Source: Candidatus Omnitrophota bacterium (GTDB lineage: Bacteria; Omnitrophota; Gorgyraeia; Tantalellales; Tantalellaceae). From it: 64,000 nucleotides of DNA. The stretch is from positions 64,466 through 128,465 of the forward strand of contig DAONGE010000002.1 in the NCBI GenBank assembly GCA_035403965.1. Direction: 5' to 3'. The position numbers and the translations under genes are program-made. Shown here one piece after another: positions 2,855-40,647 of the stretch (position 1 is the first letter of the stretch; every line of letters starts with the position of its first letter). Under the pieces are notes generated by a model. It was given only the letters and a program-made list of their open reading frames with translations. It made no database searches and was not told the origin of the DNA.

Positions 2855-4300
2855 ATGAATAATAGGCCAGAAATATTAGACATGGTAGTTCCTAATGCAG
2901 GTAAAGTGCTCGATGTCGGATGTGCTGAGGGAGACGTTGGCAGTGCCTTAAAAAAGAGGACAAATTGTGAGGTAATTGGAATTGAACTAGATCCGGGAAA
3001 AGGTGAGATTGCAAAGAAAAAAATTGATAGGGTTATTATTGGAGACGTGGAAAAGTTGGTTATTGATTTCCCTGAGAAGTGGTTCGATTGTATAATTTTT
3101 GCCGATGTGCTTGAACATCTTAGAGATCCTTTGTCGGTTATTACCAAATATGGCAAGCACCTTAAAGATAGAGGGAAAATGATAGTTTGTATTTCAAACG
3201 TACGACATATAAGCATCATAGCGGATCTCCTTTTTTGGGGCAGATGGGAATGCAAAGAGTATGGTCTTATGGACTCAGGTCATATTAGGTTTTTTACACG
3301 AAAAAGTATATTGAGAATTTTCCAAAACGCAGGGTTTAGGGTTATTTCGAGTAAAAAGATACTGAGTTTGAAAGGTTCGGGAATGTTAAGTAAATTGACG
3401 TTTGGTATTTTTGACGAATTTCTTACGGCCAAGTATGTTTTTGAGATAGCTAAAATGGAATCGGTTTTCAAGGGATATAAAAAGGTTGATTCTATAACGC
3501 GTGAAGCATGGGGAGAGAACTGGCGCGACATAAGTATTGATAGAGTGATGGAGATTTTTGACTATACTAGGGTGAAAAGACTTTTGGAGACGATCAGGGC
3601 GGAATTGCCCGAAAAGGGTAAAATCCTTGAAGGAGGGTGCGGTCTTGGCCCCTGGCTTATAAAGCTGAGGTCTCTGGGATACGATATAGAAGGCGTTGAT
3701 TATGACGAGTCGAGTGTTGGCAAAATTAGGGCATTTGACAGTAGTATATCCGTATCAGTCGCGAATATCGAACAAATGCCCTTTCCTGACCGGTATTTTA
3801 GCGTGTACCTTTCTTTTGGGGTCCTTGAGCATTTCTACGAAGGGCCAGAAAAGGCAGTGAGAGAGGCGTGGCGAGTGCTTGAGGATGGGGGAAAATTCAT
3901 TATTTTTTTACCGCACATGAACTTTTTACTGGCTGTCAGATTCCCTTTTGAAAAGATGAAAAAGAACGTTTTCATACGGCGAATACTGGGTAAAAAAGAA
4001 AAAAATTTTTATTATGAAAAATATTTCAATCGAAGAGAAATATCTGGTATTTTGAGAAAGAACGGGTTTGATATAGAAAATATTAGGCCAGTTGATCATA
4101 TTTTCTCGTTTGTTCAGTTCTCTGCGATTTTCAGAGATAAGAATACTTACGATGGGGAGAATCGTATCGCCGTGAAGATATCAGACTCTCTAAAGGGGTT
4201 GTTCCCATGGGGAACTGCCGGGTCGATGATGATAATAGCAAAAAAAAGGTATAAAAGAGGGGCGGAGCATGAAACTTGTAATACAAATACCCTGTCATAA
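2855..4300 (+). CDS. Tandem class I SAM-dependent methyltransferase (two MTase domains)
   Basis: Two glycine-rich SAM motifs are present, VLDVGCAEGDVG and ILEGGCGLGPW. Each is followed by an acidic loop and FxxVLEH. Confidence 0.7.
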   Translation: MNNRPEILDMVVPNAGKVLDVGCAEGDVGSALKKRTNCEVIGIELDPGKGEIAKKKIDRVIIGDVEKLVIDFPEKWFDCIIFADVLEHLRDPLSVITKYGKHLKDRGKMIVCISNVRHISIIADLLFWGRWECKEYGLMDSGHIRFFTRKSILRIFQNAGFRVISSKKILSLKGSGMLSKLTFGIFDEFLTAKYVFEIAKMESVFKGYKKVDSITREAWGENWRDISIDRVMEIFDYTRVKRLLETIRAELPEKGKILEGGCGLGPWLIKLRSLGYDIEGVDYDESSVGKIRAFDSSISVSVANIEQMPFPDRYFSVYLSFGVLEHFYEGPEKAVREAWRVLEDGGKFIIFLPHMNFLLAVRFPFEKMKKNVFIRRILGKKEKNFYYEKYFNRREISGILRKNGFDIENIRPVDHIFSFVQFSAIFRDKNTYDGENRIAVKISDSLKGLFPWGTAGSMMIIAKKRYKRGAEHETCNTNTLS

Positions 4301-5216
4301 TGAGGAGAACACTTTACCTGTTACCCTGAGAGACCTGCCGAAAAAGATAGAGGGGGTAGATGTTATCGAGACACTTATTATCAACGATGGCTCGACCGAT
4401 GGAACGGTGGATACGGCCAAGAGCAACGGGGCGAACCATATCCTTAATATGCCGTCGAAAAGGGGCCTGGCCGAAGCTTTTAAAAAAGGGCTTAGCAGGG
4501 CGGTAGAATTGGGGGCCGATATCATTGTGAACACCGATGGGGATAATCAGTATAAGGGAGAGGATATCCCGCTTCTTGTGCGCCCCATCATAGAAAAACG
4601 TGCGGAGATAGTTGTGGGGTGCAGGGATATTTCCGCTATACAACATTTTTCTTTTATGAAAAAGATGCTTCAGAAATTCGGAAGCCATATGGTCAGAAAG
4701 TTCTCAAATACCGATATTCCGGACACAACAAGCGGATTCCGGGCATATTCTAGAGAGGCGGCCATGCAGCTTAATGTGTTTTCCGAATATACCTATACGC
4801 TTGAGACGATCATACAGGCCGGCAGAAAGGGGATACCGATCACACATGCGCAAATCAGGACGAACCCAAAATTGCGCGAATCCCGTCTGATAAAGAGCAT
4901 ACCTGCATATATAGGTAAGTCCGTGGCTACGATGCTCAGGGTGTATCTTATGTATGAACCGTTGAAATTCTTTACGCGTGTCGGTGGTTTTTTGCTCGCA
5001 CTGGGGGCGATAACCGGCGTACGGTACGCTTATTTCTTCTTCTTTGCGGCTAAAAAAGGCGGACATGTCCAGTCCCTGATCCTTGGATCGATATTGTGCA
5101 TAATCGGTTTTCTTGTCATAGTGATCGGTCTTTTAGGTGATATTATTGCCGCTAACCGGAAACTGAATGAGGAGACCCTTTATCGTATCCGGAAATTTGG
5201 GGGACAGGCAAAATAA
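4269..5216 (+). CDS. GT2 polyprenol-phosphate glycosyltransferase (ArnC/GtrB-like) with C-terminal TM helices
   Basis: The N-terminal GT2 region has IPCHNEE, INDGSTDGT and a DGD-type motif. The C-terminal TM pair (FLLALGAITGV...ILCIIGFLVIVIGLLGDII) is typical of the ArnC/DPM1 bacterial type. Confidence 0.65.
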   Translation: MKLVIQIPCHNEENTLPVTLRDLPKKIEGVDVIETLIINDGSTDGTVDTAKSNGANHILNMPSKRGLAEAFKKGLSRAVELGADIIVNTDGDNQYKGEDIPLLVRPIIEKRAEIVVGCRDISAIQHFSFMKKMLQKFGSHMVRKFSNTDIPDTTSGFRAYSREAAMQLNVFSEYTYTLETIIQAGRKGIPITHAQIRTNPKLRESRLIKSIPAYIGKSVATMLRVYLMYEPLKFFTRVGGFLLALGAITGVRYAYFFFFAAKKGGHVQSLILGSILCIIGFLVIVIGLLGDIIAANRKLNEETLYRIRKFGGQAK

Positions 5217-7405: not shown

Positions 7406-7406
7406 A

Positions 7407-8900
7407 ATGGAAGAAAATGTCAGATATTTTCTGAACGATGACTATCCGGCTGACGATGTTACGGCATATACGCTTAAGCGGATGGCCGATGTCGATGGAG
7501 TCATAAAACCTGTGGTGGCCTTGCCGGATCTGCATTTTAAGGGGTCGTATCATACCCCTACGGGTGTTGTTGTTCTGACAAAAGATAAAATAATACCCAA
7601 GTTTCTGAACGCGAATTGTGGGATGAGTTTTGTGGTTACCACGCTAACGGTGGATGATATCGATAACGGAAAAATCGATTGTTTGTTCAATGCGCTCAAA
7701 AGACATATATCCGTAGCGCTAAGACTTTCCCCGGTAATAACCAGGTACGATCTGGGGAAAATCATAGAGACGGGGGCCGAATGGAGTTTCCGCAGGTTCG
7801 GTCTTGATGAGTCAAACTTGCAGAATATGGAAAACTGCGGGAATATATTTAAAGGGAAGAATATTGATCCGAATGATATCGATGCCAGTTTGCCGGATTT
7901 TATCAAAGACGTCGGGATGTTGAGTATGGGTGTACTGGGATATGGCAATCATTTTGTTGAAATGCAGGCGGTGGATAGCGTGATGGATGCGGAGGCGGCG
8001 AAAATGTTCGATTTGCCCACCGGCAGGATATGCTTTATGATACACGGGGATTCGCGTGGATTTGGCCAGTCGGTGATCGACCATTATTCCAAATATTCAA
8101 AAAAACTGCTGGGGTTACAGCAGGCGTATAAAAGGGTATATTATTCCATGCTGGCTAACAGGAATATCCCATCAGGCATTAAGATCTGTATGGATAGATT
8201 AAATGTTAATTTGAACCGGTATAAGTCGGTGGTGTTTTCCGGGAAGGGTGCAAAAATAAAACGGAGCGTAGAATATCGTTCGATGGATTTGTCGTCAACC
8301 GATGGACGCAGATATATGACGAGTAATTATTGCGCATTGAACTTAGGATATGCAAATAGGGCATATATAGCGGGGACCATTGCCGGGTCGTTACGGGAAA
8401 TTTTTAAAGATAAAAAAATGAATGTTACGATATTGAATGACGGGAATCATGATTCTCTTCAGGAAGAGAATATCGACGGGAAAAATTTTTTGGTGCACAG
8501 GAACGGTGCGGCAAGGGCTCTGCCGCCCGCATATTTTAACGACCATCCGATATTCGCGCGTACAGGCCAGCCGGTGCTCTTGCCTACCGCTCTTGGCAGG
8601 GATTCATATCTTTGTGCTGCAAGAGTGGGGTGTAAAGATTCCTGTTATTCCGCTTGTCACGGGACAGGCCGTCTTGTCGATAGGGGCGAAGCCAGGGGGG
8701 TTTTTACGGATGATGATGTTTACCGGGAAACAGAGGCGAAACGGATGAGAGTGTTCGATTACGGTAAAGGAAAGATATCAGAGGAAGCCCCGGCGGCTTT
8801 TAAAGATGCAAAAAAGATATTGGAAACCATGGAACGCTATAATATCGCCTGTCCGGTGGTTAAATTGCGGCCGGTGGCTGTACTCAAAGGGTGGAGATGA
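7407..8900 (+). CDS. RtcB-family 3'-phosphate RNA ligase homolog (divergent)
   Basis: Motifs were matched to RtcB from memory: ALPDLH, NANCGM (metal-binding Cys), GYGNHFVE, IHGDSRGFG, VHRNGAARA and CHGTGR. The ATG follows 2 nt after the upstream stop. Confidence 0.6.
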   Translation: MEENVRYFLNDDYPADDVTAYTLKRMADVDGVIKPVVALPDLHFKGSYHTPTGVVVLTKDKIIPKFLNANCGMSFVVTTLTVDDIDNGKIDCLFNALKRHISVALRLSPVITRYDLGKIIETGAEWSFRRFGLDESNLQNMENCGNIFKGKNIDPNDIDASLPDFIKDVGMLSMGVLGYGNHFVEMQAVDSVMDAEAAKMFDLPTGRICFMIHGDSRGFGQSVIDHYSKYSKKLLGLQQAYKRVYYSMLANRNIPSGIKICMDRLNVNLNRYKSVVFSGKGAKIKRSVEYRSMDLSSTDGRRYMTSNYCALNLGYANRAYIAGTIAGSLREIFKDKKMNVTILNDGNHDSLQEENIDGKNFLVHRNGAARALPPAYFNDHPIFARTGQPVLLPTALGRDSYLCAARVGCKDSCYSACHGTGRLVDRGEARGVFTDDDVYRETEAKRMRVFDYGKGKISEEAPAAFKDAKKILETMERYNIACPVVKLRPVAVLKGWR

Positions 8901-8901
8901 A

Positions 8902-9534
8902 ATGTTAATAGCGTTTTGCGGTCTGGATGGTGCGGGGAAAACGACTCAGGCTAATTCTGTCGTAAAAATGTTTGAGTCACGCGGCTTAAAATGCGGGTAC
9001 AGACATTTTATAAAAGGAACGTTGAGTTATTATCTGACGCACAATATAGTTGGAAAGGTTAGCATGGGTTTCCGCAGCAGCTTGGAACAAAAGTTGCGGA
9101 AAGAAAAGAAGGGCTTAGATTCTGTGCTTCTTTCCTGGGTGAAGAGGCTGCTTGTATTGGTCGATGTCGTTTATTTTAATCTGAGATACGGGAACCGCAA
9201 AGGGGATGTATTAAACAATATCGTCTGTGATCGATATTATTATGACGAATTGGTGCAATTAAACTACTTGGGGTTTAAGCTAGGAGTAATGGAGAAGTTT
9301 ATAAAACGGATCATGATAGAGCCTGACAGGATATTTTACATAGATATTCTTCCCGAAACGGCTTTTACGCGTAAATCCGAGGGGTTTTGTGAAGAGTATT
9401 TTAGGATCAAAAGTAAGAGATATAAAGACTATTTGCCAAAAAGCACTGTGTGTATACCGGGGGATGGGACCGAGGGTGAAATAAAAGATATTATTTTGTC
9501 AGAGATGAAAAAGTTCCTTCCCGGAGAGCATTAA
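8902..9534 (+). CDS. dTMP kinase-like P-loop nucleotide kinase
   Basis: The N-terminal IAFCGLDGAGKTTQ P-loop and a CDRYYYD (DRY) motif are characteristic of thymidylate kinase. The ATG follows 2 nt after the RtcB-like stop. Confidence 0.5.
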   Translation: MLIAFCGLDGAGKTTQANSVVKMFESRGLKCGYRHFIKGTLSYYLTHNIVGKVSMGFRSSLEQKLRKEKKGLDSVLLSWVKRLLVLVDVVYFNLRYGNRKGDVLNNIVCDRYYYDELVQLNYLGFKLGVMEKFIKRIMIEPDRIFYIDILPETAFTRKSEGFCEEYFRIKSKRYKDYLPKSTVCIPGDGTEGEIKDIILSEMKKFLPGEH

Positions 9535-9624: not shown

Positions 9625-10581
9625 TTGGTGATAAATATCTTTAATAAAAAAACATTCCAAGTGGCTTTTGTTGTTGTTGTCACGGTAGTGTTTATATTTT
9701 TTATCCAGTCGCATTTAGACTATTTAAAAAAAGCAGCGAGTATGAGCCCGCTGTTGATCGTTGCCGTGATAAGTATGGATATTCTTAGTAAGGCTTGCAG
9801 CGGGTTAAAAATAAAGATCGTTTTAAAAAAATTTGGCATCAGGCTTTCTTTTAAGGAATGGTATGGCCTGTCGTCCATGTCGGCGTATTACAATTATTTT
9901 TTTTCGAAAAGCGGCACAGTGTTAGCCGCCACATATGTCAGGAAGAAATACGGCTTTAATTATTCGAAATATGCGGGTTTTTTAATGGGAGATGTGGCTA
10001 CCGTAGTTATTGCGTCCGGAGTGTTGGGTACGGTTGCATCGTTGCTCTGGGAAAATTTTACAAAAAATTCCACGCACAGTATTGTTGTTGTGTCTTTTTT
10101 TATCTTGTTTGTCATGGCGTCCCTGGTTTTTTTCATTCCAAAGTTTAGATTGCCGAAGCGGGGAATAATGACAAAAATAAACAGCGCAATGGATGGTTGG
10201 TATTCGGTAAAAGCAAAACCGGACATTCTGGTCGCCATGTTTTTTTTGAATATGGCTATCATTGTCATATTTGCTATACGGTATTACGTGCTTTTTAGGG
10301 TTTTTTCTGATCCTGTCCCGTTCTCGATATGCTGCCTGGTCTCTCCGCTTGCAAATCTTACGCAGATATTAAGCGTGGTGCCATCGGCATATGGGCTAAG
10401 GGAAGCAGTGATGGGCGGTATGACTAAATTGTATGATTTTGGTTTTGTTTCCGGGGCGATAGTTTCTATAATAGACAGGGTGATCATGATGCTGGTCTTT
10501 TTTATTTTAGGCCCGCTGTTCACCTATATGTTGATGAAAAAGACGGGATATGACAGGGAAGATAGGAGGGATGCGGAGTGA
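9625..10581 (+). CDS. Polytopic membrane protein, flippase-like (LPG-synthase-TM/UPF0104-type)
   Basis: It has 6-8 predicted TM helices and an UPF0104-like sequence pattern. The start codon is uncertain (TTG/GTG). Confidence 0.35.
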   Translation: MVINIFNKKTFQVAFVVVVTVVFIFFIQSHLDYLKKAASMSPLLIVAVISMDILSKACSGLKIKIVLKKFGIRLSFKEWYGLSSMSAYYNYFFSKSGTVLAATYVRKKYGFNYSKYAGFLMGDVATVVIASGVLGTVASLLWENFTKNSTHSIVVVSFFILFVMASLVFFIPKFRLPKRGIMTKINSAMDGWYSVKAKPDILVAMFFLNMAIIVIFAIRYYVLFRVFSDPVPFSICCLVSPLANLTQILSVVPSAYGLREAVMGGMTKLYDFGFVSGAIVSIIDRVIMMLVFFILGPLFTYMLMKKTGYDREDRRDAE

Positions 10582-12098
10582 ATGGGAAAACAATGCCTTG
10601 CTACATTTTTTTGTTTTTCATGTCGCTTTATGCATTTTTTTCAATAGGGCATTTTGCCGGTGACGGGTACCAGGATTATCTTACAGCCGAAAGCATAGTT
10701 CTGGATGGCAACCTGACTTTAATGGACCGGCCCGATGATGTTGATCAGCTTGCTTATAAGACCAAGGTGGGAGTAAGAGGCGCCAACGGCGAATTATATT
10801 CATCCCGTGGATCGGTGGGTATGGCTTTATTGCTTGTGCCGTTCTATTTCGCTGGGCATATAGTGTCTTTTGTCGCCCGGAATGTGCCGCATGATTATGT
10901 TACACAATTATGCGTTTCTTTTGCGAATCCGTTTTTTACTGCGCTTAATTGTGTTTTGGTTTTTTTGTTGGGGAAAAGAATGAGGTTCGGAGATAGAACA
11001 TCGGTATGGATTAGCCTGCTTTTTGGCCTTTCGACCATGTGTCCGGTATACGCACGGACAGGGTTTTCTGAGCCGGCTATGATGTTTTTTACCATCTTTG
11101 CGGCATATTTTATTTTTCGATATAAAGAAACATGTGCGTTTTTTGATATTATGATGTCGGGGATGTCTCTGGGGTTAATAGCGGTAGTGAAATTCCAGGG
11201 AGTAGTTTTGTTGCCCGCATTTTTTATTTATTTCATATATTGCGCGCTTGAAAAAAAAGATTTTAAACGCATCGCTATACATTCTCTGGTGTTTGTTCTT
11301 ATGCCTATGTGTTTTGTCGGGTCGGTGATGTTGCTGAACAAGGTGATATATGGTAGTTTCCTTTCTTTTGGCGGGTATGATGCTGTTGAATTTACAAAAC
11401 GCGTGGCCGGATCGCCGCATGTAATAAAGGGGTTATATTATTACCTTTTTAGCACGGGTAAAGGATTCTTCTTGTTCAATATTCCGGTTGTTCTCGGCTT
11501 TTTGGTATTTAATAAAGCTTTGGCAAAGAGAAAAAAAGAGACTATATTCATAATGGCATTATTTTTGCTAAACCTTATATTCTATGTTAAATCTTTCAGG
11601 CGGGGGTCGCTTTTCTCATGGGGGCCGAGATATCTTATGCCATCCGTTCCTTTTCTTATGCTTTTGGCCGGGGTGTATATCGATGAGATCAAAAGCGCCG
11701 CCGGTAGAATCTTTTTGTACATATGTGCTGGGACCGGGATTCTTATCTCATTACCGTGCATGTTTGTGAATCAGGCAAAATATTATAATTTCATTGTAGA
11801 AAAATTTAAAATTGATGAGTATATGATAAATTTCATTCCAGATCTTTCTCCGATGGGTGGGGCGTGGCATATGTTCCTTGGTGCTATCGGCGTTATTTCG
11901 AAACACTTCACATATTCGCCCGATTATAGGTTTATCGATCCGCTCACTCAAAGTATGGAAGGGTATGCTTATGTGGACCTGTGGTCAGTGAAGATAATGG
12001 AATTGGCCCCACAGTACTCTTGGTTGGTGTTTATGGCGTTGTTCGGATTGCTTGTAATAACAGTGATTTCATTCTTAAAATTATGCAGAATAAAATAG
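10578..12098 (+). CDS. Large polytopic membrane protein, putative GT-C fold glycosyltransferase
   Basis: It has more than 10 TM helices and sits within a glycan cluster. Its start overlaps the upstream stop. Confidence 0.3.
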   Translation: MNGKTMPCYIFLFFMSLYAFFSIGHFAGDGYQDYLTAESIVLDGNLTLMDRPDDVDQLAYKTKVGVRGANGELYSSRGSVGMALLLVPFYFAGHIVSFVARNVPHDYVTQLCVSFANPFFTALNCVLVFLLGKRMRFGDRTSVWISLLFGLSTMCPVYARTGFSEPAMMFFTIFAAYFIFRYKETCAFFDIMMSGMSLGLIAVVKFQGVVLLPAFFIYFIYCALEKKDFKRIAIHSLVFVLMPMCFVGSVMLLNKVIYGSFLSFGGYDAVEFTKRVAGSPHVIKGLYYYLFSTGKGFFLFNIPVVLGFLVFNKALAKRKKETIFIMALFLLNLIFYVKSFRRGSLFSWGPRYLMPSVPFLMLLAGVYIDEIKSAAGRIFLYICAGTGILISLPCMFVNQAKYYNFIVEKFKIDEYMINFIPDLSPMGGAWHMFLGAIGVISKHFTYSPDYRFIDPLTQSMEGYAYVDLWSVKIMELAPQYSWLVFMALFGLLVITVISFLKLCRIK

Positions 12099-13000
12099 AT
12101 ATACTGATTTTGAATTATAATGGTAAGTCTCTTTTGGAATCGTATCTGGGCTCCGTGGTAGAGGCTGCATCTTTAGCGTCCGCTGAGTGTGGGGTTTATG
12201 TGGTGGATAATCGTAGTAGTGACGGAAGCGTGGAATATGTAAGGGCGAATTATCCGTCGGTAAAAGTGATAGTTGCTGCCGAGAACAAAGTCTTGATTTC
12301 ATATAATGACGTTGTGAAAGATTTGGCGAGTAACATTGTCATATTTTTAAATAACGATATGTCAGCTGACAAGGGTTTTATTGATCCGCTTGTCGCAGAA
12401 TTCAAGGACCCTAAAGTAATGTTTGCCGCTCCGAGGATAATGAATTTCGATGGCACATATAACGGCGGCAGATCATATATGAAATTGAGCGCGGGTGCGA
12501 TAAAAGTTGTTGTCGATGAGGGCAATTATATGAAGTCCGGAGAGACCTGTGCGATCTCAACCGGGGCTTTTCGACGGGAAATGTTCCTGGAGCTTGGCGG
12601 ATTTGACGATCTTTACTTGCCGGGGATATGGGAGGATGTTGATATTTGTTTTAGGGGATTAATCAAAGGATATAAGGGGAAGTACGTTCCGCAGAGTGTT
12701 ATATATCATGCTGAATCCACTACGTTTCATAGAGAATATGGTACGAGCAAAAAAATGGTGATCGCGCACAGGAATATGTTTCTGTTCTTATGGAAAAATA
12801 TAATAGATAAAAGGATATTATTGTCGAATATTTTCTTATCAGTACCGCGGGCCCTTTTTCTTTTTTTAAAAGGGAATCCGGAAATATTATATGGATTGTT
12901 TGCGGCAGTCTGGAAAATTAAAACTGTCATGACCAAAAGAAAGGAATGGTTGGCGGGAAGTCCTTTGCGGGTCATGAAAGATTCGGATCTGATAAAATGA
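12083..13000 (+). CDS. Glycosyltransferase family 2
   Basis: It carries ILILNYNG, YVVDNRSSDGS and an EDVD acidic motif. Confidence 0.65.
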   Translation: MQNKIDILILNYNGKSLLESYLGSVVEAASLASAECGVYVVDNRSSDGSVEYVRANYPSVKVIVAAENKVLISYNDVVKDLASNIVIFLNNDMSADKGFIDPLVAEFKDPKVMFAAPRIMNFDGTYNGGRSYMKLSAGAIKVVVDEGNYMKSGETCAISTGAFRREMFLELGGFDDLYLPGIWEDVDICFRGLIKGYKGKYVPQSVIYHAESTTFHREYGTSKKMVIAHRNMFLFLWKNIIDKRILLSNIFLSVPRALFLFLKGNPEILYGLFAAVWKIKTVMTKRKEWLAGSPLRVMKDSDLIK

Positions 13001-14688
13001 AAATCGCGCTTCTTACAAGTGACAATATAGACGGTTTGATAGTAAGCCATAGGCTTTTTGTGGATAAGATAGATCTTCAGGCGATCGTATATGAAAAAAA
13101 GAAAGTTACGGTTAAGGCTTTTGTTAAAAGGTGTGTTTATCTTTTTCTGGGACGTATCGGGAATATTGTTTTTTTCGGATACAATAAAATAAAGATCCAA
13201 TCCGTCGGAAATATCAATTCTGAAGAAACTATGGCAGTTTTGAGAGAAATAAGGCCGGATCTGATCATAGTCGTAGGCACGCGCAAGCTTGAACCGGCAA
13301 TATTTAATTTTCCCAAATACGGTACGATAAATCTCCATTCAGGGATCCTTCCTTATTACAGAGGTGCAGATTCGGAATTTTGGGCCATGTATAACGGGGA
13401 GATCGATAAAATAGGTGTTACCGTGCATTACCTGGATAAGGAGCTAGACTCAGGGGATATTATCCTTACTGAAAAACAGAAAGTCCTGGCCGTGGATAAA
13501 CATAATAATCTCAGAATGAAAAATCTTATTGTCGGCGCGGCTAAGATATCCGAGGCGGTGCGCAAAATAGAAAAAAACGAGATAACGAGATATAAACAGG
13601 ATACGAGTTTGGCTGTGACATATAAAACAGTAACTTCAAAAGAAATAGCAGGTTTTTACGCGTATAAAAGATCTTTCGAGAAAAGCCGTGTGTCTGTGAA
13701 AAAAAGTTTTGGTCCTGAAGGGATGACAGTGTCGGAAAATGTGGCAAAGAGGCCATCTTTGTTGCTTGAAAAACCGGGTGATGTCCGGGAATCCGGGATT
13801 TTTTGTCTCAGGATAGATGCCGACGAATACAGTGAAAATAATTTCCGCAGTTATTATCCTGTTTTCAAGCGATACAATAAAGCTACTTCCATATTTTTTA
13901 GCATAAATTCTTTCAAAGAGGCAAAAGGGGCGATCATTGACTGTAAAACGATGGGGGTGGATATAGGGTCGCACGGTTTTTATCATCATACTTATAACGA
14001 TTATGAGAGCAATCGATATAATCTGATCAGGGCCAGGGAGTTTTTAGAAGGGTTAGGCATAGATGCGAAAGGATTTGTCTCACCGATGGGGAAATGGAAT
14101 CGCGATCTGGCCAAGGCGCTTGAGGACGAAAAGTTTAAATATTCGTCCGAATTCGCCTACGATTATGCAGGATTCCCTAGTTACCCTATTATCGATGGAA
14201 GATATTCTGACGTACTACAGATCCCGGTGTTCCCGGTTGCGCCGGAATTGTTTTTTGAAAAAGGATATGCTCCGGGAAAAATAATAGAATATTATAAAGA
14301 AGCTATAGATATGATGAGGGCAAATGGGGTCCCGGTCATCATTTATGCACATACGAACCCGAAATTCCAACAGGTGCCGGATCTGCTCGCGAGAATATGT
14401 GAGTATGCTGTGGACCGGTCAGGATTAGAGCCGATATCAATGACCGGTTTTTTTGAAAAATGGACAAAAACAAATGAGACGTTTAGGATAAGACGCACGC
14501 CCGTATCTAGGGTCGTGAACGAGATGTTCGTCGGGGCGGAACTTCGCGAGAAAGCGTCTGAGCGCGTAAAAAAAGAGGTCAAAATTTTTTTGGATTATGA
14601 AATAATCACTCCGCCAGAAGAATTGCGGTGCGGGAAGTTGAAAAAGATGTTAAAATTATCTGCCAGAAGATTTTTTAAATATAATTGA
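12997..14688 (+). CDS. Fusion protein with an N-terminal formyltransferase domain (Fmt/ArnA-FT-like) and a C-terminal NodB-type polysaccharide deacetylase/deformylase domain (ArnD-like)
   Basis: The N-terminal motif HSGILPYYRGADSEFWA is a formyl_trans_N HxSLLPxxRG variant. The C-terminal motifs are LRIDADEY and DIGSHGFYHH (NodB motifs). ATGA overlaps the upstream gene. Confidence 0.55.
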   Translation: MKIALLTSDNIDGLIVSHRLFVDKIDLQAIVYEKKKVTVKAFVKRCVYLFLGRIGNIVFFGYNKIKIQSVGNINSEETMAVLREIRPDLIIVVGTRKLEPAIFNFPKYGTINLHSGILPYYRGADSEFWAMYNGEIDKIGVTVHYLDKELDSGDIILTEKQKVLAVDKHNNLRMKNLIVGAAKISEAVRKIEKNEITRYKQDTSLAVTYKTVTSKEIAGFYAYKRSFEKSRVSVKKSFGPEGMTVSENVAKRPSLLLEKPGDVRESGIFCLRIDADEYSENNFRSYYPVFKRYNKATSIFFSINSFKEAKGAIIDCKTMGVDIGSHGFYHHTYNDYESNRYNLIRAREFLEGLGIDAKGFVSPMGKWNRDLAKALEDEKFKYSSEFAYDYAGFPSYPIIDGRYSDVLQIPVFPVAPELFFEKGYAPGKIIEYYKEAIDMMRANGVPVIIYAHTNPKFQQVPDLLARICEYAVDRSGLEPISMTGFFEKWTKTNETFRIRRTPVSRVVNEMFVGAELREKASERVKKEVKIFLDYEIITPPEELRCGKLKKMLKLSARRFFKYN

Positions 14689-14745: not shown

Positions 14746-15861
14746 ATGAAAATAGCGTTTGTATTTGGAACCAGACCGGAAATAATCAAGCTTAGCCCGG
14801 TGATACGTCTTGCGATTAAGGCAAAAGTGCCGTTCATCACTATACATACCGGCCAGCATTATTCCGATAACATGTCGAAATTTTTCATAAACGAACTTGA
14901 TCTGCCGCGACCGGATTATAATCTTAATGTCAGGTCAAAAGCCCCGTATATGCAGGGAGATCACACCGGGCGCATGATGATAAAACTGGAAGAGATACTT
15001 TTGAAAGAAATGCCGACTGACACTCTTGTTCAGGGCGATACTAATTCTACTTTGGCAGGGGCTTTGGTAACGTCAAAGATATCAACGACAAAGTCGTTCA
15101 CGGGGTTTGAGATAAAGCTCGGGCATATAGAGGCCGGGCTTAGAAGTTATGATAGAAATATGCCGGAAGAGATAAACCGTGTGATAACGGACCACTTGTC
15201 GGATTATCTTTTTGTGCCCACGGGTGAGTCCCGTGATATCGCGCTTTCTGAAGGGGTGGATAAGAAAAAGGTTTATATCACCGGGAATACTATTGTCGAC
15301 GCACTTTATGAATCGGTGGAAAGATCCAAAGCATACAGCGACATTATCGGGAGAAATAAGTTAAGCCGTGGCGGATATATGCTGTTGACCTTGCATCGGC
15401 AGGAGAATGTGGATAACAAAAAACGTGTCGTGAATATGATAGCGGGTATAAAAAAGATCAAGGCGAAGTACGGGCTTCCGGTTGTTTTTCCGATACATCC
15501 GCGTACGGTGAAGAAAATGGAGATGTTTGGTATTGATCCCTTGTCTTTCGCCACCGTGATCGAACCGACCGGATTCCTTGATTTTTTGGCTTTAGAAGAC
15601 AACGCCGCGCTTGTTATTACTGATTCGGGTGGACTCCAGGAAGAGTCGTGTGTATTGAAAGTGCCGTGTATTACGCTCCGGGATACTACCGAGAGGCCGG
15701 AGACCGTGACTGTAGGGGCTAATATGTTAGCCGGAGCGTGCCCCGATAAAATATTGGAATGCGCCAAAAAAATGATCTCTAAGAAAAGGAATTGGAAAAA
15801 TCCGTTCGGTAATGGTGACACTGCCAAACGTATAATGAAAATTTTGAAAGAAAGAGCATGA
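14746..15861 (+). CDS. wecB: UDP-N-acetylglucosamine 2-epimerase (non-hydrolysing)
   Basis: The motifs GTRPEIIKLSPV, HTGQHYS, HIEAGLRS and EEINRVITDHLSDYLF are the WecB/MnaA signature. Confidence 0.85.
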   Translation: MKIAFVFGTRPEIIKLSPVIRLAIKAKVPFITIHTGQHYSDNMSKFFINELDLPRPDYNLNVRSKAPYMQGDHTGRMMIKLEEILLKEMPTDTLVQGDTNSTLAGALVTSKISTTKSFTGFEIKLGHIEAGLRSYDRNMPEEINRVITDHLSDYLFVPTGESRDIALSEGVDKKKVYITGNTIVDALYESVERSKAYSDIIGRNKLSRGGYMLLTLHRQENVDNKKRVVNMIAGIKKIKAKYGLPVVFPIHPRTVKKMEMFGIDPLSFATVIEPTGFLDFLALEDNAALVITDSGGLQEESCVLKVPCITLRDTTERPETVTVGANMLAGACPDKILECAKKMISKKRNWKNPFGNGDTAKRIMKILKERA

Positions 15862-16913
15862 TGGGAAGAACTATGAGGGTAGCATTTTTTGTTTATCCTT
15901 CCGCTTTTCAGAATAAAGGCGGCGGAGAGATAGTCCTTGAAAAACACGAAGAGTATCTGCTTAAGAAAAACATCGATATTAAACGTTTCGATATGTGGAA
16001 CGACAAAATCCAGGATTTCGATATTCTTCATGTATTCGGGTCGGTGAAAGACTGCCTTCCGCTTATGCAGGTGGCAAAAGCCCGAGGTGTTAAGGTGGTG
16101 CTTGAATCCATATTCTGGTCGGATTTCAGGCGCGCTTTTTTCGAGGATGGAAGCGCTAAGGATAAAATGGAAAAAATCGTCAGGCATTTTATTAAAGTAG
16201 CTTTCCCGTTTTTCCCGTCCGGCCGAAAAAAGATGTTCGAAGTGGCTGATATGATAGTCCCGAATTCAATCAACGAAGGAAAGCAAATCGCAAGGCTTTT
16301 TAATGTCCCGATTTCAAAGATGTTCGTTGTTCCAAATGGAGTCGATTCTAAATTCGCATATGCTACAGCTGATATGTTCGAAAGACAATACGGAATGAAA
16401 GATTTTGTTTTGTCGGTTGGAAGGATCGAACCGAGGAAGAACCAGCTAAACCTTATTAAAGCCGTAAAGGGGCTTGATAAAGAACTTGCGATCATAGGGG
16501 CGCCGGTCAGCGGATATGAATGGTATTACGAGAGTTGTTTGAAAGAAGCGTCGGGAAATGTGAAATTTTTGGGCGCTATGTCCCATGAGTCCGATATGTT
16601 GACTTCGGCTTATGCGGCTTGCGACATTTTTGTATTGCAGGGTTGGTTTGAAACGCCCGGGCTTGCGGCGATGGAAGCGGCGCTTGCCGGGGCCAAGGTT
16701 ATCGCCACTTTAGGGGGGAGCACTAAGGAATATTTTTCGAACAAGGTGTTCTATCTTGATCCCAGTTCTCCTTCAGACATTAGGAGGAAGATAGGTTTGG
16801 CCGTATCGACGAACAAAAGTCCGGAATTGCGAAATTATATGATGAATAATTATACGTGGGAGAAAGTTGTGGATAAAATGATCGAAGGATATAGAAAGGT
16901 GATGGGAAAATGA
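15858..16913 (+). CDS. Glycosyltransferase family 4
   Basis: It has RIEPRKNQLNLIKA and ETPGLAAMEAALAGAKVIAT, consistent with a GT-B fold. Confidence 0.65.
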   Translation: MMGRTMRVAFFVYPSAFQNKGGGEIVLEKHEEYLLKKNIDIKRFDMWNDKIQDFDILHVFGSVKDCLPLMQVAKARGVKVVLESIFWSDFRRAFFEDGSAKDKMEKIVRHFIKVAFPFFPSGRKKMFEVADMIVPNSINEGKQIARLFNVPISKMFVVPNGVDSKFAYATADMFERQYGMKDFVLSVGRIEPRKNQLNLIKAVKGLDKELAIIGAPVSGYEWYYESCLKEASGNVKFLGAMSHESDMLTSAYAACDIFVLQGWFETPGLAAMEAALAGAKVIATLGGSTKEYFSNKVFYLDPSSPSDIRRKIGLAVSTNKSPELRNYMMNNYTWEKVVDKMIEGYRKVMGK

Positions 16914-17599
16914 AAGTTTCGGTTCTCATTCCGGTATATAACGAAAAAAAGACCATACTTGATCTTTTGGATCTTGTGAAACTCGTTTCGATGGATAAGG
17001 AAATAGTGGTTGTTGACGATTGCTCGAAAGACGGGACGCGCGAACTTCTTAAGAAACATTTTGGCGCTGAGGCCGGCGATATTAGGATATTTTATCATGA
17101 GGTTAATAAAGGCAAAGGAAGTGCCATCCGTACTGCGCTGAAGCATGCGGCAGGCGAATACGTCATCGTACAGGACGCGGATATGGAGTATTCTCCACAT
17201 GATATGCTCAAACTTGTGGAAGCAGCGGAAAAAGGGAATGCCGCTGTGTTCGGGTCACGGTTCCTAAAAACATGGAAAAGTACGTCCCTCCCGCATTATA
17301 TGGTTAATTTTTTTCTGACCGGATTGACCAATCTATTGTTCGGGGCCAGACTTACGGATATGGAAACATGTTACAAAATGGTTCGGACCGATATAATGCG
17401 TAGTCTCGATATCAAGGCCGATAAGTTCGAATTCGAGCCGGAGGTTACGGCGAAATTATTGCAAAACGGTATAAAAATAAAAGAAGTGCCGATATCTTAT
17501 CGTGGCAGGAGTTATGATGAGGGGAAAAAGATAACCTGGCGGGACGGAGTAGATACGGTTATGATCCTTTTTAAGCTGAAGTTTTTCAGAACGATCTGA
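16910..17599 (+). CDS. GT2 polyprenol-phosphate sugar synthase (DPM1/ArnC-like, soluble)
   Basis: It has VLIPVYNE, VVVDDCSKDGT and VQDADMEY (DxD). It lies immediately upstream of an ArnT-like GT-C gene. Confidence 0.65.
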   Translation: MKVSVLIPVYNEKKTILDLLDLVKLVSMDKEIVVVDDCSKDGTRELLKKHFGAEAGDIRIFYHEVNKGKGSAIRTALKHAAGEYVIVQDADMEYSPHDMLKLVEAAEKGNAAVFGSRFLKTWKSTSLPHYMVNFFLTGLTNLLFGARLTDMETCYKMVRTDIMRSLDIKADKFEFEPEVTAKLLQNGIKIKEVPISYRGRSYDEGKKITWRDGVDTVMILFKLKFFRTI

Positions 17600-17633
17600 A
17601 CGTGATGACCGATATATTTAATTTCGGTACGAT

Positions 17634-18989
17634 ATGAAAAAAGACATACTGATTCTAATCTTTTTATCTGCGATAATATTCCTTTCAGCTCTCGGGTCAG
17701 GGAGCTTGAGTTCGTGGGACGAAGCATTCTATGCCCAGGTTTCCAGGGAAATGTTCGAACGAGGCGATTGGCTCCATCTTTATTGGGGCGGGGCTTCATG
17801 GAATGATAAACCACCGATGTATATGTGGGTTACATGCGTTTTTTATGAACTATTCGGAGTAAACGAGTTTTCAGCGAGATTGTTTTCGGCATTGTCCGGT
17901 ACGGCACTGGTTGTTTTTACTTATTTGTTGGGGCTTAGATTTTTTGGGAGAAGAACAGGCTTTATAGCTGCCGTGATGATGATGTCGAGTTACCATTTTA
18001 TTTTGTTTGCGAAATCCGGAACGCTGGATGTGGCATCGGCAATGTTCATAACCGGGGCGATATATTTTTTGGGCAGAGATAAAGAGGCCGGTTGGCATAC
18101 GGTCACCGCTTTCATGCTTTTTAGTCTGGCTTTTCTTACAAAGAGTTTTGCCGCTCTTCTTGTCCCTGTTATCTTTACCGGGTATGTCGCAATTACGGGC
18201 AAATGGCGTCTCATATTCAATCGGTATGCGTTTGTTGGGGCGGTCATAAGCTTTTTAACCCTTGGGCTGTGGCATTACAGTGCATTTTCTTCAGATGGTA
18301 ATTTTGTGGGTGGATATTTTATTCAGCATTTGTTCCAGAGGACCACGCAGGCGATGGACGGGCATACAGGGAATTGGCTTACTTACATAAATGTTGTGTT
18401 GTATAAGGCTAAACCATGGGGATCCGTCGGGATCGTAGCGTTGCTTTTTTTTGTGATCTCCAGCATAAAGAAAAAAGAAACGGAAAAGTGGCTGTTTATC
18501 GTGTGGATAGTCGCGACATACGCGATATTTACAGCTGTGAAGACGAAACTACATTGGTACATAATCCCGGTATATCCCGCTATTTTTTTGGTCGCTGCGT
18601 GGGGGATGGAAAAATTATTGAGAAAATTTTCTTTGATAGTTGTTTTGGTGATTTCTATAGGCAGTGTATTGTATTTCGGGGCGAAAAAAGAGATTTTTTC
18701 TTTGGATTTCAATCATGATATTAAAAAATTCGCGTCTGAAATAGACCGGGCAACCGGGGCTGAACGGGTGTCGGGAGGGATATACGCGGTTGATGTCAGC
18801 GATCCCGGCCTAATGTTCTATATGTCGGGTATAGCTAAAAGAGTATCCCCCGATAACTATAAAAACATAACGTTGGGGAAGAAAAATTTTATAGCGGTAG
18901 GAAGAAACGAGACATTGGCCGCGCTCAAAATACAGGGGAAACGCATTTTGTCTTGTAGGAACGATTATTCGGCAGTGTTGGTTGAGTGA
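17634..18989 (+). CDS. ArnT/PMT-family GT-C glycosyltransferase (GT83/GT39-like)
   Basis: The first periplasmic loop carries SSWDEAFYAQVSREMFERGDWLHLYW...NDKPPMYMW, which is the ArnT/PMT signature. It has about 11 TM helices. Confidence 0.7.
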   Translation: MKKDILILIFLSAIIFLSALGSGSLSSWDEAFYAQVSREMFERGDWLHLYWGGASWNDKPPMYMWVTCVFYELFGVNEFSARLFSALSGTALVVFTYLLGLRFFGRRTGFIAAVMMMSSYHFILFAKSGTLDVASAMFITGAIYFLGRDKEAGWHTVTAFMLFSLAFLTKSFAALLVPVIFTGYVAITGKWRLIFNRYAFVGAVISFLTLGLWHYSAFSSDGNFVGGYFIQHLFQRTTQAMDGHTGNWLTYINVVLYKAKPWGSVGIVALLFFVISSIKKKETEKWLFIVWIVATYAIFTAVKTKLHWYIIPVYPAIFLVAAWGMEKLLRKFSLIVVLVISIGSVLYFGAKKEIFSLDFNHDIKKFASEIDRATGAERVSGGIYAVDVSDPGLMFYMSGIAKRVSPDNYKNITLGKKNFIAVGRNETLAALKIQGKRILSCRNDYSAVLVE

Positions 18990-19074: not shown

Positions 19075-20205
19075 ATGTATGTATACAAAAAAAAGACGCT
19101 GAGGATATTGTTCACTATCGTTGACGCGATAGGAGGGGCTCTGTTTTTCTGTCTCAAACGCCGCAAGCCGGATACGTCGGCTATAAAAAAAATATTGGTA
19201 ATACGACTTGATCATATAGGCGATCTCGTGAATGCTTCCGTGGTTTTTGCTCCGTTGCGGAGGTATTTCCCGGGTTCAACTATTGAAATACTTTGTTCTC
19301 CCGCAGGGAAAGAACTTTATGGCTGTAATCCTGACATTGATAAGATAAATGTTTTCAAAGCGCCGTGGTTTAGCAGGGATAAGACAGGTTTTAAGGAAAC
19401 TTTACGGCAATTTTTTTTACTGGTGAAGATTATCCGGGAAGGGGAATATGGTCTTTGTTTTGACCTGAGAGGGGATTTTAGGCATATTCTTGCTATGTTT
19501 TTTTCAGGGGTCAGATGCCGGGTGGGTTACGGGATCACTGGCGGTGGTTTTTTGCTTACGCGGGAAGTGCCATATGCCGGGCTTGTTCATGAACAGGTAA
19601 GGAATTTGCGTTTACTCGGAGCCGTTGGTGTAAAAGAGGAAGAACCTAAAGTTGACATAAGGGCAGATGGCAATGGGGAAAAGAAAGCTAGAAATATAGC
19701 GATCGGATATTGTTCGGGAGAACAGTATTGTATAATTCACATGTTCCCGGGTCATCCAACAAAACGGTGGTCTTTGGATAGGTTCGCAGATATAATTAAA
19801 TATATAAAAGACGAAAAGAGGCTGATGCCGGTTCTGGTTGGAGCGGAAGCAGACCGTAAATATATGGAAGGTTTTCGGTCTAGGCCCGGATCGGACTATA
19901 TAGATGTTATCGGACACGCCGATCTTGGTACGGTATATCATTTGTGCCGTTGCGCCAGGATGTTTATCGGAGTGGATTCGGGTCCGGCGCATATCGCCGC
20001 TGCAAGCGGGGTCAGATGTATTGTTCTTTTTAGCGGGGTTAATGCTCCGGAAGAATGGGCTCCGTTGGGGACAAATGTCAGAGTGATCTGTCCCGGAAAG
20101 AACCGGGATTTGTCCGTGGTTCAGGTAAAGGAAGTGTGCGAGATAATTGATGAATATATCAACTTGTCAGAGAGAAGCCCCTCCAAGGACGGCATATTCC
20201 GTTAA
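19075..20205 (+). CDS. Glycosyltransferase family 9 (LPS heptosyltransferase-like)
   Basis: It has ILVIRLDHIGDLV and GVDSGPAHIAAASGV..IVLFSG. Confidence 0.75.
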   Translation: MYVYKKKTLRILFTIVDAIGGALFFCLKRRKPDTSAIKKILVIRLDHIGDLVNASVVFAPLRRYFPGSTIEILCSPAGKELYGCNPDIDKINVFKAPWFSRDKTGFKETLRQFFLLVKIIREGEYGLCFDLRGDFRHILAMFFSGVRCRVGYGITGGGFLLTREVPYAGLVHEQVRNLRLLGAVGVKEEEPKVDIRADGNGEKKARNIAIGYCSGEQYCIIHMFPGHPTKRWSLDRFADIIKYIKDEKRLMPVLVGAEADRKYMEGFRSRPGSDYIDVIGHADLGTVYHLCRCARMFIGVDSGPAHIAAASGVRCIVLFSGVNAPEEWAPLGTNVRVICPGKNRDLSVVQVKEVCEIIDEYINLSERSPSKDGIFR

Positions 20206-33122: not shown

Positions 33123-33550
33123 TTAATTTTGGACTTGATAAAACGATCAAAGAGAAACTGCTGATAGTTTTTATATCGGCTTGGGTGATCATATGGGTGA
33201 TATTTCTTATACGTCCGGATAAAAAGGGGCAGTATCCTCTTTTGTTCAAGTTGTATGCTGCGCGGGGTGAGGAAAGGATCAGAACCGCTTTTGGGGCAGA
33301 TATGTACGATACGGTTATTTTTTGTAAAAACAATATGCGCCCTGGCGCCACATATCGTATGTATGGGTTCGAAAAATATTCTATTAACGAGGTTCGCGCC
33401 AGATATTTATTATGGCCGGCTAAATGTACCGGTGACGTTGAGCCTGATTATAAGATAGTTTTCGGAGGCGGGCTTGTGGACGAGAAAGGTTACCTGAGGA
33501 CGGATATCCCTGCCGGTAAAGGGTATCTATTGAGGAAAGAGCGATCATGA
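33119..33550 (+). CDS. Hypothetical small protein with N-terminal TM anchor
   Basis: It is translationally coupled on both sides (ATGA overlaps) and has one N-terminal TM helix. Confidence 0.4.
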   Translation: MINFGLDKTIKEKLLIVFISAWVIIWVIFLIRPDKKGQYPLLFKLYAARGEERIRTAFGADMYDTVIFCKNNMRPGATYRMYGFEKYSINEVRARYLLWPAKCTGDVEPDYKIVFGGGLVDEKGYLRTDIPAGKGYLLRKERS

Positions 33551-40627: not shown

Positions 40628-40647
40628 TAAAGCAAGGTGGGCAAAAT

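Follow-up and report, generated by a model that had tools for sequence, protein, structure and literature searches.

A formyltransferase-NodB fusion in an Omnitrophota glycan locus as a candidate acetyl-to-formyl exchange enzyme

In the 64,000-nucleotide stretch of Candidatus Omnitrophota DNA analysed here (the window), a single gene encodes a 563-residue protein that joins an N-terminal Formyl_trans_N domain to a C-terminal NodB/CE4 domain (Pfam; Table 1). We propose, giving the idea about even chances, that this fusion belongs to a cell-envelope glycan (LPS-type) locus and, as a bifunctional enzyme, tailors amino sugars by exchanging an acetyl for a formyl group. The C-terminal NodB-type metal-dependent amidohydrolase would N-deacetylate a 2-acetamido sugar. 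This sugar is probably a GlcNAc or ManNAc that originates from UDP-GlcNAc, and its carrier may be a nucleotide, a polyprenyl phosphate or the nascent glycan. The N-terminal N10-formyl-tetrahydrofolate-dependent transferase would then formylate the freed amine, and as the net outcome the final glycan would contain a formamido sugar that keeps its formyl group. The cassette is modular: in sister lineages the NodB module stands with other partners (a methyltransferase (MT), a carbamoyltransferase or none adjacent), which would give different surface chemistries. Omnitrophota are a phylum with few cultured members, and their very small cells have envelopes that are almost unknown.

The open reading frame on the forward strand begins at 12946 or 12997 and ends at 14688; the start at 12997 (MKIALLTSD...) was chosen, and the N-termini of all homologues agree with it. 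Its start codon and the stop codon of the GT2 gene before it overlap within the sequence ATGA. The first-pass annotation had placed a formyltransferase (FT) and a NodB domain in one polypeptide, and domain mapping by HMM bears this out, with both Formyl_trans_N (PF00551; aa 74-175, E 3.6e-18, 66.4 bits versus a cut-off of 26.1) and Polysacc_deac_1 (PF01522; aa 276-381, E 7.7e-9, 36 bits versus 23.1) above the Pfam gathering thresholds and the cited motifs in place (HSGILPYYRGADSEFWA at aa 114-130, DADEY at 274-278, HGFYHH at 326-331). Structure modelling was confident, the AlphaFold model of the fusion having a pLDDT of 89 and a pTM of 0.83. Both active sites, whose loss would have made the protein inactive or of another function, are intact: N112/H114/D151 and D274/D276/H326/H330/H452 are invariant in 22 full-length homologues, and we therefore rejected an inactive or pseudo-enzyme fusion. 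The architecture, rightly described as unusual, occurs in 6 of 1.84 billion representative proteins. A full-text literature search returned no description of a formyltransferase/polysaccharide-deacetylase fusion or of a bifunctional N-formyltransferase/deacetylase, and another on 2-formamido sugars and sugar N-formyltransferases returned nothing relevant.

Table 1. The fusion gene, its parts and its neighbours (window coordinates)
Feature	Position	Strand	Remarks
AglJ/ArnC-like GT2, two C-terminal hydrophobic segments	4269..5216	+	first gene of conserved upstream block
LPG_synthase_TM family membrane protein, ~7 hydrophobic segments	9625..10581	+	conserved in block
GT-C fold membrane glycosyltransferase, LA_3751/LA_3752 family	10578..12098	+	weak PMT_2 match; conserved in block
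GT2 glycosyltransferase, 305 aa	12083..13000	+	homologue directly upstream of FT/NodB in most related loci
FT-NodB fusion gene	12997..14688	+	identical to P0001, Candidatus Omnitrophota MAG protein
N-terminal formyltransferase domain, aa 1-227	12997..13677	+	Pfam PF00551; without Formyl_trans_C subdomain
FT catalytic triad	N112 13330-13332; H114 13336-13338; D151 13447-13449	+	invariant in 22 sequences
Beta-hairpin and linker, aa 228-267	13678..13797	+	K236, F238, E247 conserved
NodB/CE4 barrel, aa 268-500	13798..14496	+	Pfam PF01522, Foldseek
Conserved C-terminal tail, aa 513-563	14533..14685	+	motif D533-x-E535-x-x-T538-P539
WecB, non-hydrolysing UDP-GlcNAc 2-epimerase	14746..15861	+	TIGR00236, 374 bits versus cut-off 210
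GT4 glycosyltransferase	15858..16913	+	always paired with WecB in related loci
Small Dpm1/AglJ-like GT2	16910-17599	+	partner named by first-pass annotation
ArnT-like GT-C	17634-18989	+	ArnT model E 4.6e-29, 101 bits versus cut-off 567

The N-domain has the Asn-His-Asp triad in the HxSLLPxxRG-type loop, with N112, H114 and D151 aligning to WbkC. This GDP-perosamine N-formyltransferase is also its best PDB sequence match (1.2e-13), and Foldseek matched the domain to Fmt, the ArnA formyltransferase domain and WbkC. The best NCBIfam match is ArnA (E 2.7e-18; 65.7 bits, below the cut-off of 777), and FDH hydrolase domains and PurU are also among the matches. Pfam detected neither Formyl_trans_C (PF02911) nor an SDR domain, the other ArnA-type domains, in the fusion. 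The fusion is not the housekeeping Fmt of this genome, as the real one, complete with Formyl_trans_C (PF02911), is encoded at 40624-41583.

Stand-alone NodB homologues begin at the hairpin and linker that follow, which we therefore assigned to the NodB module. Five NodB motifs can be read in the barrel (motif 1, R272-I-D274-A-D276; motif 2, H326-x3-H330; motif 3, P363-x-G365; motif 4, D389-Y390; motif 5, H452), with residues conserved in 75-77 of 77 sequences and D274/D276, H326/H330 and H452 in all 77; judged by their placement on the strands of the model, these last would form the metal triad and the catalytic Asp and His. Motif 3, with the consensus GFAAPxG, is without the canonical Arg of the RPPYG type, which in NodB/CE4 enzymes pairs with the catalytic Asp. 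The invariant R272 beside motif 1 may substitute for it, and in NodB2 proteins an Arg from elsewhere in the sequence replaces the motif-3 Arg (PMC10967932). Foldseek matched the C-domain to 3rxz (2.7e-11) and 3qbu (3.3e-9), to 4m1b, 1z7a and 3cl6, and to many CE4 enzymes; the PuuE-like 1z7a and 3cl6 also head the PDB sequence matches obtained with the C-domain profile. ArnD (8t0j) ranked only tenth in the Foldseek search (E 2e-8, TM 0.47/0.57, 16% identity), with uncharacterised NodB1.2 proteins and the five structures just named ahead of it. The nearest structures reported for ArnD itself are 3rxz, 3qbu, 1z7a and 3s6o (PMC10967932), and these common fold neighbours make a deformylase activity of the C-domain possible. 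None of the ArnD-named NCBIfam models matched the C-domain even at E<=10, the sole match being PdaB, and PDB sequence searches with the fusion or the C-domain did not return ArnD. The C-domain is a NodB1.2-type barrel and, on sequence, not an ArnD orthologue, ArnD being only a distant fold relative. The conserved tail holds a cationic amphipathic helix (aa 545-562, net charge +7, hydrophobic moment 0.53) that may bind the membrane surface. A related NodB family of ~530 aa (L028) has a 190-aa N-domain for which no meaningful PDB match was found.

The locus is rich in glycosyltransferases (GT2, GT4, GT9 and several GT-C). Within the conserved upstream block, the first GT2 is a candidate polyprenyl-phosphate sugar synthase and the LPG_synthase_TM protein may act as a flippase. 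The two GT2 genes and the GT-C gene that the first-pass annotation had named as neighbours are present as described, and its remark that neither an ArnA dehydrogenase domain nor ArnB is visible in the window agrees with our scan, in which no aminotransferase and no SDR dehydrogenase/decarboxylase occurred among window ORFs of at least 150 aa.

Comparison with related loci revealed FT-NodB fusions not only in the window but also in L001, L002, L003, L012, L015, L016, L017, L021, L024 and L025, while in the same context FT and NodB are separate adjacent genes in L004/L005/L011 and L009, and separate but adjacent tblastn segments in L008 and L019. The existence of both fused and split forms indicates that FT and NodB are functional partners. 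In other loci the slot before NodB is taken by an MT, either fused to it (L014/P0056, whose match to the NodS Pfam model reaches an E of only 2e-4), as part of a GT2-MT-NodB protein (L006/L007) or as a split GT2-MT followed by NodB (L023), or by a NodU/CmcH-type carbamoyltransferase (L018), and in L010 and L013 NodB has no adjacent FT, MT or carbamoyltransferase gene. No formyltransferase was matched in the flanks of L014, L006/L007, L023, L018, L010 or L013. The constant neighbours are the GT2 directly upstream and the WecB and GT4 genes downstream, the latter two found in nearly all loci (not L001), with WecB downstream of the NodB gene in ~20 of them. The small GT2 and the ArnT-like gene are absent from L001 and L002, the ArnT-like gene being present among related loci only in L004/L011 and L014; because of this variable presence beside fusion relatives, the pair (16910..18989) is probably a separate module. 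No sugar aminotransferase lies within 10 kb on either side of any related locus with listed gene calls. Some of the related MAGs carry the labels Planctomycetia, Scalindua, Marinimicrobia or Patescibacteria, which we did not count as spread outside Omnitrophota, since the loci are syntenic and labels from binning cannot be relied on.

These patterns carry the case for an acetyl-to-formyl exchange. As no sugar aminotransferase is encoded locally, de-N-acetylation is the only local source of an amine for formylation. When 77 NodB domains were aligned, 58 positions were at least 95% conserved and at no position was a residue found that separates FT-linked from MT-linked domains; partner types are likewise intermixed in a neighbour-joining tree, which is star-like and without support values. 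Thus NodB probably carries out one and the same step with every partner, a pattern pointing to de-N-acetylation, and the exchangeable slot together with the shared NodB residues is best read as NodB deacetylating and the partner re-capping the amine. We counted the almost constant neighbour WecB, which uses UDP-GlcNAc, in favour of the proposal. The genome could still hold an aminotransferase gene outside the 64 kb seen, and if the MTs and the carbamoyltransferase of the sister loci were O-directed, as they could be, the case that every partner caps the amine would be weaker. To our knowledge, the characterised sugar N-formyltransferases all use NDP-amino sugars that aminotransferases produce, and we know of no NodB enzyme that deacetylates an NDP-sugar; with FT substrates NDP-linked and NodB substrates not, one of the two domains would need an unprecedented substrate class. 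A more specific version of the proposal, which we put forward only tentatively, follows the logic of NDST (see below): a single-chain N-deacetylase/N-formyltransferase would convert a lipid-linked or glycan-bound N-acetylhexosamine into the N-formylhexosamine, and this would be the first aminotransferase-free route to a formamido sugar, the first FT acting on a non-nucleotide sugar, and a plug-and-play Omnitrophota cassette with formyl/methyl/carbamoyl exchange.

The first-pass annotation had read the locus as an Arn-like pathway. Spelled out, the N-domain would formylate a nucleotide-linked amino sugar, the ArnC-like GT2 would transfer it to polyprenyl phosphate, the C-domain would deformylate it, and with a flippase and a GT-C the sugar, its amine now free, would reach lipid A or the LPS core. 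Domain families, intact sites and rarity stand from that reading, and it could further draw on ArnA as the best NCBIfam match of the N-domain, on the ArnC/AglJ-like GT2 with TM segments, the flippase-like protein and the GT-C conserved in one block, on a cationic amphipathic helix that suits a membrane-surface enzyme, and on a significant ArnD fold match, the nearest structures of ArnD being the same NodB1.2 proteins (PMC10967932). What lacks support is formyl as a transient protecting group. The window and the relatives' listed flanks contain neither an aminotransferase nor an ArnA-type dehydrogenase/decarboxylase, so that locally there is no amine to protect; the ArnA score is far below its cut-off, an ArnD family match is absent, and NodB domains with identical conserved residues sit beside an MT, a carbamoyltransferase or no such partner with no FT nearby, where a deformylase would be without a substrate. 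Nor do the ArnT-like gene and the small GT2 hold as pathway partners, as they are only variably adjacent to fusion relatives and the former is a neighbour in a minority of related loci. We regard the Arn-like pathway as improbable; if true, it would imply an Arn-type cationic modification of lipid A from a different amino sugar.

Slightly less improbable, though still unlikely in our judgement, is that the two domains serve the same glycan pathway at different residues or positions, NodB deacetylating one HexNAc and the FT formylating an unrelated amino sugar, with the fusion ensuring only co-expression or complex formation. Fused and split forms do demonstrate partnership and not a common substrate, the locus has many glycosyltransferases, and in NDST1 the catalytic domains lie back to back, which limits direct cooperativity (PMC10864358). 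However, a local source for a second amino sugar was not found, and FT, MT and carbamoyltransferase have repeatedly been swapped while always remaining fused to, or directly upstream of, NodB, a tight slot exchange that fits consecutive steps on one group better than work on separate residues. Least probable of all, and by some distance, is a different function for one domain, such as an N-domain that hydrolyses formyl-THF (FDH, PurU) or a NodB domain that acts on a non-sugar amide (PuuE allantoinase). The FDH, PurU and PuuE-like matches given above speak for it, but the gene sits in a cluster of glycosyltransferases to which its translation is coupled, the N-domain has a sugar N-formyltransferase as its best PDB sequence match, and the D-H-H metal ligands are kept, whereas PuuE is described as metal-independent (PMC10967932).

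Should the acetyl-to-formyl exchange prove true, a fused deacetylase-formyltransferase would provide a simple, testable origin for N-2-formylated hexosamines, which the aminotransferase route cannot reach because that nitrogen arrives already acetylated. It would also offer a compact tool for N-acyl editing of sugars, comparable to NDST in heparin engineering, and the interchange of formyl, methyl and carbamoyl partners points to modular variation of surface chemistry in Omnitrophota.

Set against known systems, the fusion resembles Arn (the ArnA formyltransferase domain with ArnD) in its superfamilies, a Formyl_trans_N domain with an N-H-D triad and a NodB1.2-type barrel, and in the ArnC-like GT2, flippase-like and GT-C genes nearby. 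It differs in holding both activities in one polypeptide, in being without the C-terminal subdomain and dehydrogenase domain of ArnA, in a window without ArnB, and in the likely reversed direction, with acetyl taken off and formyl put on and kept, whereas in Arn formyl is put on and then removed. With the sugar N-formyltransferases WbkC, WbtJ, VioF and FdtF its N-domain shares the catalytic core and a similar size (~230-250 aa), WbkC being the best PDB match; as far as we know, WbkC-type members act on NDP-4- or 3-amino sugars from aminotransferases, a deacetylase is neither fused to nor paired with any of them, and formamido sugars of bacterial glycans in general are made by formylating aminotransferase-derived NDP-amino sugars. 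In the lipid A hexosamine modifications of Bordetella (LgmA/B/C) and Francisella (FlmF2/NaxD/FlmK), undecaprenyl-P-HexNAc is the product of a GT2, its amine is exposed by a deacetylase (NodB-type in Lgm), and an ArnT-like GT-C transfers the sugar. By gene content the GT2-TM, NodB and GT-C of the conserved block are alike, but there the free amine is the end point and no formyltransferase takes part.

Nod-factor tailoring (NodB, then NodS, NodA and NodU) offers a parallel, by family only, to the MT and the NodU/CmcH-family carbamoyltransferase beside sister NodB genes, although in that system separate proteins work on chitooligosaccharides, and NodU is an O-carbamoyltransferase. We know of no formylation in the Nod-factor system. 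There, the amine freed by NodB goes on to receive an N-methyl or N-acyl group (PMC11681206). The closest working analogy is NDST, in which a NodB-like metal-dependent N-deacetylase and a transferase that re-caps the amine share one chain; in NDST1 the deacetylase is a NodB-like (beta/alpha)7 domain with a His-His-Asp site, joined to an N-sulfotransferase (PMC10864358). NDST, a eukaryotic Golgi enzyme, has a polymer as its substrate and caps it with sulfate from PAPS; its deacetylase is Agd3-like, the capping domains are non-homologous and the order of the domains is opposite to that of the fusion. The fusion nevertheless has an NDST-type architecture, and the swapping of partners suggests that its domains, too, may act consecutively.

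To define the gene, we compared the forward-strand reading frame (12946/12997..14688) with its homologues and found that all share the start Met at 12997 (MKIALLTSD), whose ATG also shares bases with the stop codon TGA of the GT2 gene before it (ATGA); the gene is therefore 12997-14688 and encodes 563 residues. The protein, identical to P0001 from a Candidatus Omnitrophota MAG that is annotated merely as 'formyltransferase family protein', contains all motifs quoted in the first-pass annotation, and together with the reading frame and the Pfam domains (see the table) these bear out its proposal of a one-polypeptide fusion of a formyltransferase and a NodB domain. No TM segment is present in the fusion, whose C-terminus forms a conserved, cationic and amphipathic helix (aa 545-562) with a net charge of +7 and a hydrophobic moment of 0.53.

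Features of the fusion, its conserved upstream block and related NodB modules (L, related loci; P, related proteins)
Feature	Source	Coordinates	Match or size
Formyl_trans_N	fusion	aa 74-175	Pfam E 3.6e-18, above gathering score
Polysacc_deac_1	fusion	aa 276-381	Pfam E 7.7e-9, above gathering score
Upstream block: AglJ/ArnC-like GT2 with TM segments	window	4269-5216	
Upstream block: GT4s	window		
Upstream block: RtcB-family RNA ligase homologue	window	7374-8900	Pfam E 3e-77
Upstream block: thymidylate-kinase-like P-loop protein	window	8806-9534	
Upstream block: LPG_synthase_TM protein	window	9625-10581	
Upstream block: GT-C enzyme	window	10578-12098	
NodB slot: class-I methyltransferase	L014; P0056	9257-10996 (L014)	
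NodB slot: GT2-methyltransferase, fused	L006/L007	10001-12463	
NodB slot: GT2-methyltransferase, split from NodB	L023	8523-9965	
NodB slot: NodU/CmcH-type carbamoyltransferase	L018	8301-9977	Carbam_trans_N/C, E 1e-56 to 1e-65
NodB architecture: stand-alone			~335 aa
NodB architecture: methyltransferase-NodB			~576 aa
NodB architecture: GT2-methyltransferase-NodB			~820-885 aa
NodB architecture: N-domain without PDB or Pfam match plus NodB (large family)	L026; L027; L028	5494-7107; 2446-4038; 9461-11071	~500-540 aa

Alignment of 22 full-length homologues (39-55% identity) revealed that the formyltransferase triad (N112, H114, D151) and its surrounding loop (G116, L118, P119, Y121, R122, G123) are invariant, as are D274 and D276 (motif 1, D-A-D), H326 and H330 (motif 2) and H452 (motif 5) of NodB, while the motif-4 D389 is kept in 75 of 77 NodB domains. 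Thus, the loss of catalytic residues in either domain, named at the outset as grounds for abandoning the fusion's proposed activities, was not seen. [quoted passage not shown] AlphaFold models of the full chain (pLDDT 89, pTM 0.83) and of the C-terminal module by itself (pLDDT 89.7, pTM 0.90) were searched with Foldseek, matching the N-domain to Fmt, the ArnA formyltransferase domain, FDH hydrolase domains and sugar N-formyltransferases, and the C-terminal module to the CE4/NodB proteins 3rxz (2.7e-11), HpPgdA 3qbu, PuuE-like 1z7a/3cl6 and 3s6o, with Salmonella ArnD (8t0j) tenth (E 2e-8, TM 0.47/0.57, 16% identity). By sequence, the closest solved relative of the N-domain is the Brucella GDP-perosamine N-formyltransferase WbkC (E 1.2e-13). 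A role as methionyl-tRNA formyltransferase was rejected, the true enzyme, with Formyl_trans_C, being encoded separately at 40624-41583.

We then mapped the window proteins onto 30 related loci by tblastn and checked the reading frames. Fused domains occur in the window, L001, L002, L003, L012, L015, L016, L017, L021, L024 and L025. In L004/L005/L011 and L009 they are encoded, in the same context, by directly successive separate genes with the formyltransferase gene first (in L004 a 234-aa formyltransferase gene overlaps a 336-aa NodB gene by 16 nt), and tblastn detects them as adjacent but separate segments in L008 and L019, indicating that a conserved gene pair underlies the fusion, which is a fusion/fission variant of it. 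Immediately upstream, the constant neighbour is a GT2 homologous to that at 12083-13000, preceded by a block (see the table) that is complete in most loci with long enough flanks; WecB (a non-hydrolysing UDP-GlcNAc 2-epimerase, 14746..15861) and a GT4 (15858-16913) follow in nearly all loci except L001, where all of the window's downstream genes are missing. The small GT2 (16910-17599) and ArnT-like GT-C (17634-18989), initially proposed as partners, do lie downstream in the window but vary between related loci: L002 lacks both, and the GT-C gene recurs only in L004/L011 and L014. The RtcB homologue and the thymidylate-kinase-like protein hold the same place in L001-L004, L011, L017, L018, L020 and L028. 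A hexapeptide-repeat acyltransferase and a GH88-like protein are encoded by two adjoining genes downstream of NodB in L002, L004 and L006, and are fused in L018 (11966-13522).

The slot in front of the NodB module, whether an adjoining gene or a fused domain, is interchangeable between loci (see the table). L010 and L013 encode NodB with no adjacent formyltransferase, methyltransferase, GT2-methyltransferase or carbamoyltransferase gene, a GT2-methyltransferase gene lying ~3 kb downstream in L010. No formyltransferase was matched by tblastn in the flanks of L014, L006/L007, L023, L018, L010 or L013, and in loci without one NodB cannot act by taking off a formyl group added locally. Conservation reaches 95% or more at 58 positions across 77 NodB modules, among them all putative active-site residues; no position is differentially conserved between formyltransferase- and methyltransferase-linked modules, and partner types are intermixed in a rough neighbour-joining tree, so the NodB reaction looks the same irrespective of partner.

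Immediately upstream of the AglJ/ArnC-like GT2, the window also encodes a protein with two tandem class-I methyltransferase domains (2855-4300). The second is 37-50% identical to methyltransferases adjoining or fused to NodB elsewhere, and thus this genome may both methylate and formylate.

Neither a DegT/ArnB-type aminotransferase nor an ArnA-type dehydrogenase/decarboxylase was present among scanned window ORFs of at least 150 aa, as the first-pass annotation had noted, or, for the related loci, among the genes listed up to 10 kb to either side. Locally, the formyltransferase could obtain an amine only if a sugar derived from UDP-GlcNAc were de-N-acetylated, and WecB, a UDP-GlcNAc user, adjoins NodB almost invariably. 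We favour, at roughly even confidence, an acetyl-to-formyl swap: the NodB domain would de-N-acetylate a HexNAc and the formyltransferase domain would move the formyl group of N10-formyl-THF onto the freed amine, leaving a formamido sugar in the envelope glycan, while sister lineages would install methyl or carbamoyl instead or leave the amine free. A lipid-linked substrate, like that of ArnD, is plausible because the block has a candidate polyprenyl-phosphate sugar synthase, a flippase-like protein and a GT-C enzyme. Alternatively, the substrate may be a nucleotide sugar (UDP-ManNAc to UDP-ManN to UDP-ManNFo), which would suit known formyltransferases.

The originally proposed Arn-like pathway, in which formylation merely protects an amine that NodB later deprotects, draws on the ArnC-like GT2, flippase-like protein and GT-C enzyme of the block, on the NodB1.2 structural neighbourhood common to ArnD and the C-domain, and on ArnA as best NCBIfam match of the N-domain, but at 65.7 bits this lies far under the 777 cut-off. 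The pathway also lacks an amine source and leaves unexplained both the partners that replace the formyltransferase and the loci with no such partner beside NodB, and we consider it unlikely. That the two activities serve different residues of the same glycan is only slightly more likely, and a non-canonical activity (a formyl-THF hydrolase or a PuuE-like amidohydrolase, for example) is less likely still than the Arn-like pathway given the glycosyltransferase context and the kept metal ligands.

A word-indexed search of 5.8 billion clusters returned ~33 full-length fusions, all named hosts being Omnitrophota, and a full HMMER scan of 1.84 billion representatives only six; NodB modules without formyltransferase are far commoner. 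The ~190-aa N-domain of the large ~500-540 aa family (P0133-P0261) had no match in PDB or Pfam; its members share the NodB core and C-terminal DxExxTP tail with the fusion, and that of L028 sits in the same slot, after the GT-C gene. Outside the window, P0099-P0111 (~795-825 aa) join an LptF/LptG LPS-export permease to a complete methionyl-tRNA-formyltransferase-like unit (Formyl_trans_N and Formyl_trans_C).

The window has a strong strand bias in genes and composition: all long ORFs with a domain match are on the forward strand, and every 2-kb bin of the 64 kb shows a positive GC skew (+0.12 to +0.29). Its periplasmic-glycosylation repertoire is unusually dense for a single locus, with four GT-C/PMT_2-like membrane glycosyltransferases (10578-12098, 17634-18989, 20147-21709, 33547-34920), four GT9 heptosyltransferase-like genes, a Wzy_C ligase and a Bac_transf initiating transferase. 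An 1108-aa ORF (55591-58917) without Pfam match at E<=1e-5 precedes a small C-type lectin and PEP-CTERM protein (59340-59870).

We found no description of the formyltransferase-NodB combination, or of a modular formyl/methyl/carbamoyl cassette, in the searchable literature. Derived wholly by comparison, the acetyl-to-formyl swap is a concrete and cheaply testable hypothesis for how formamido sugars could be made without an aminotransferase in a poorly known phylum. Neither the two domain families nor the principle of deacetylating and then capping is new: NDST1 combines in one chain an N-sulfotransferase with a NodB-like deacetylase of His-His-Asp type (PMC10864358), and Nod-factor tailoring likewise deacetylates and then caps the amine, with NodS methylating the terminus deacetylated by NodB before acylation by NodA (PMC11681206).
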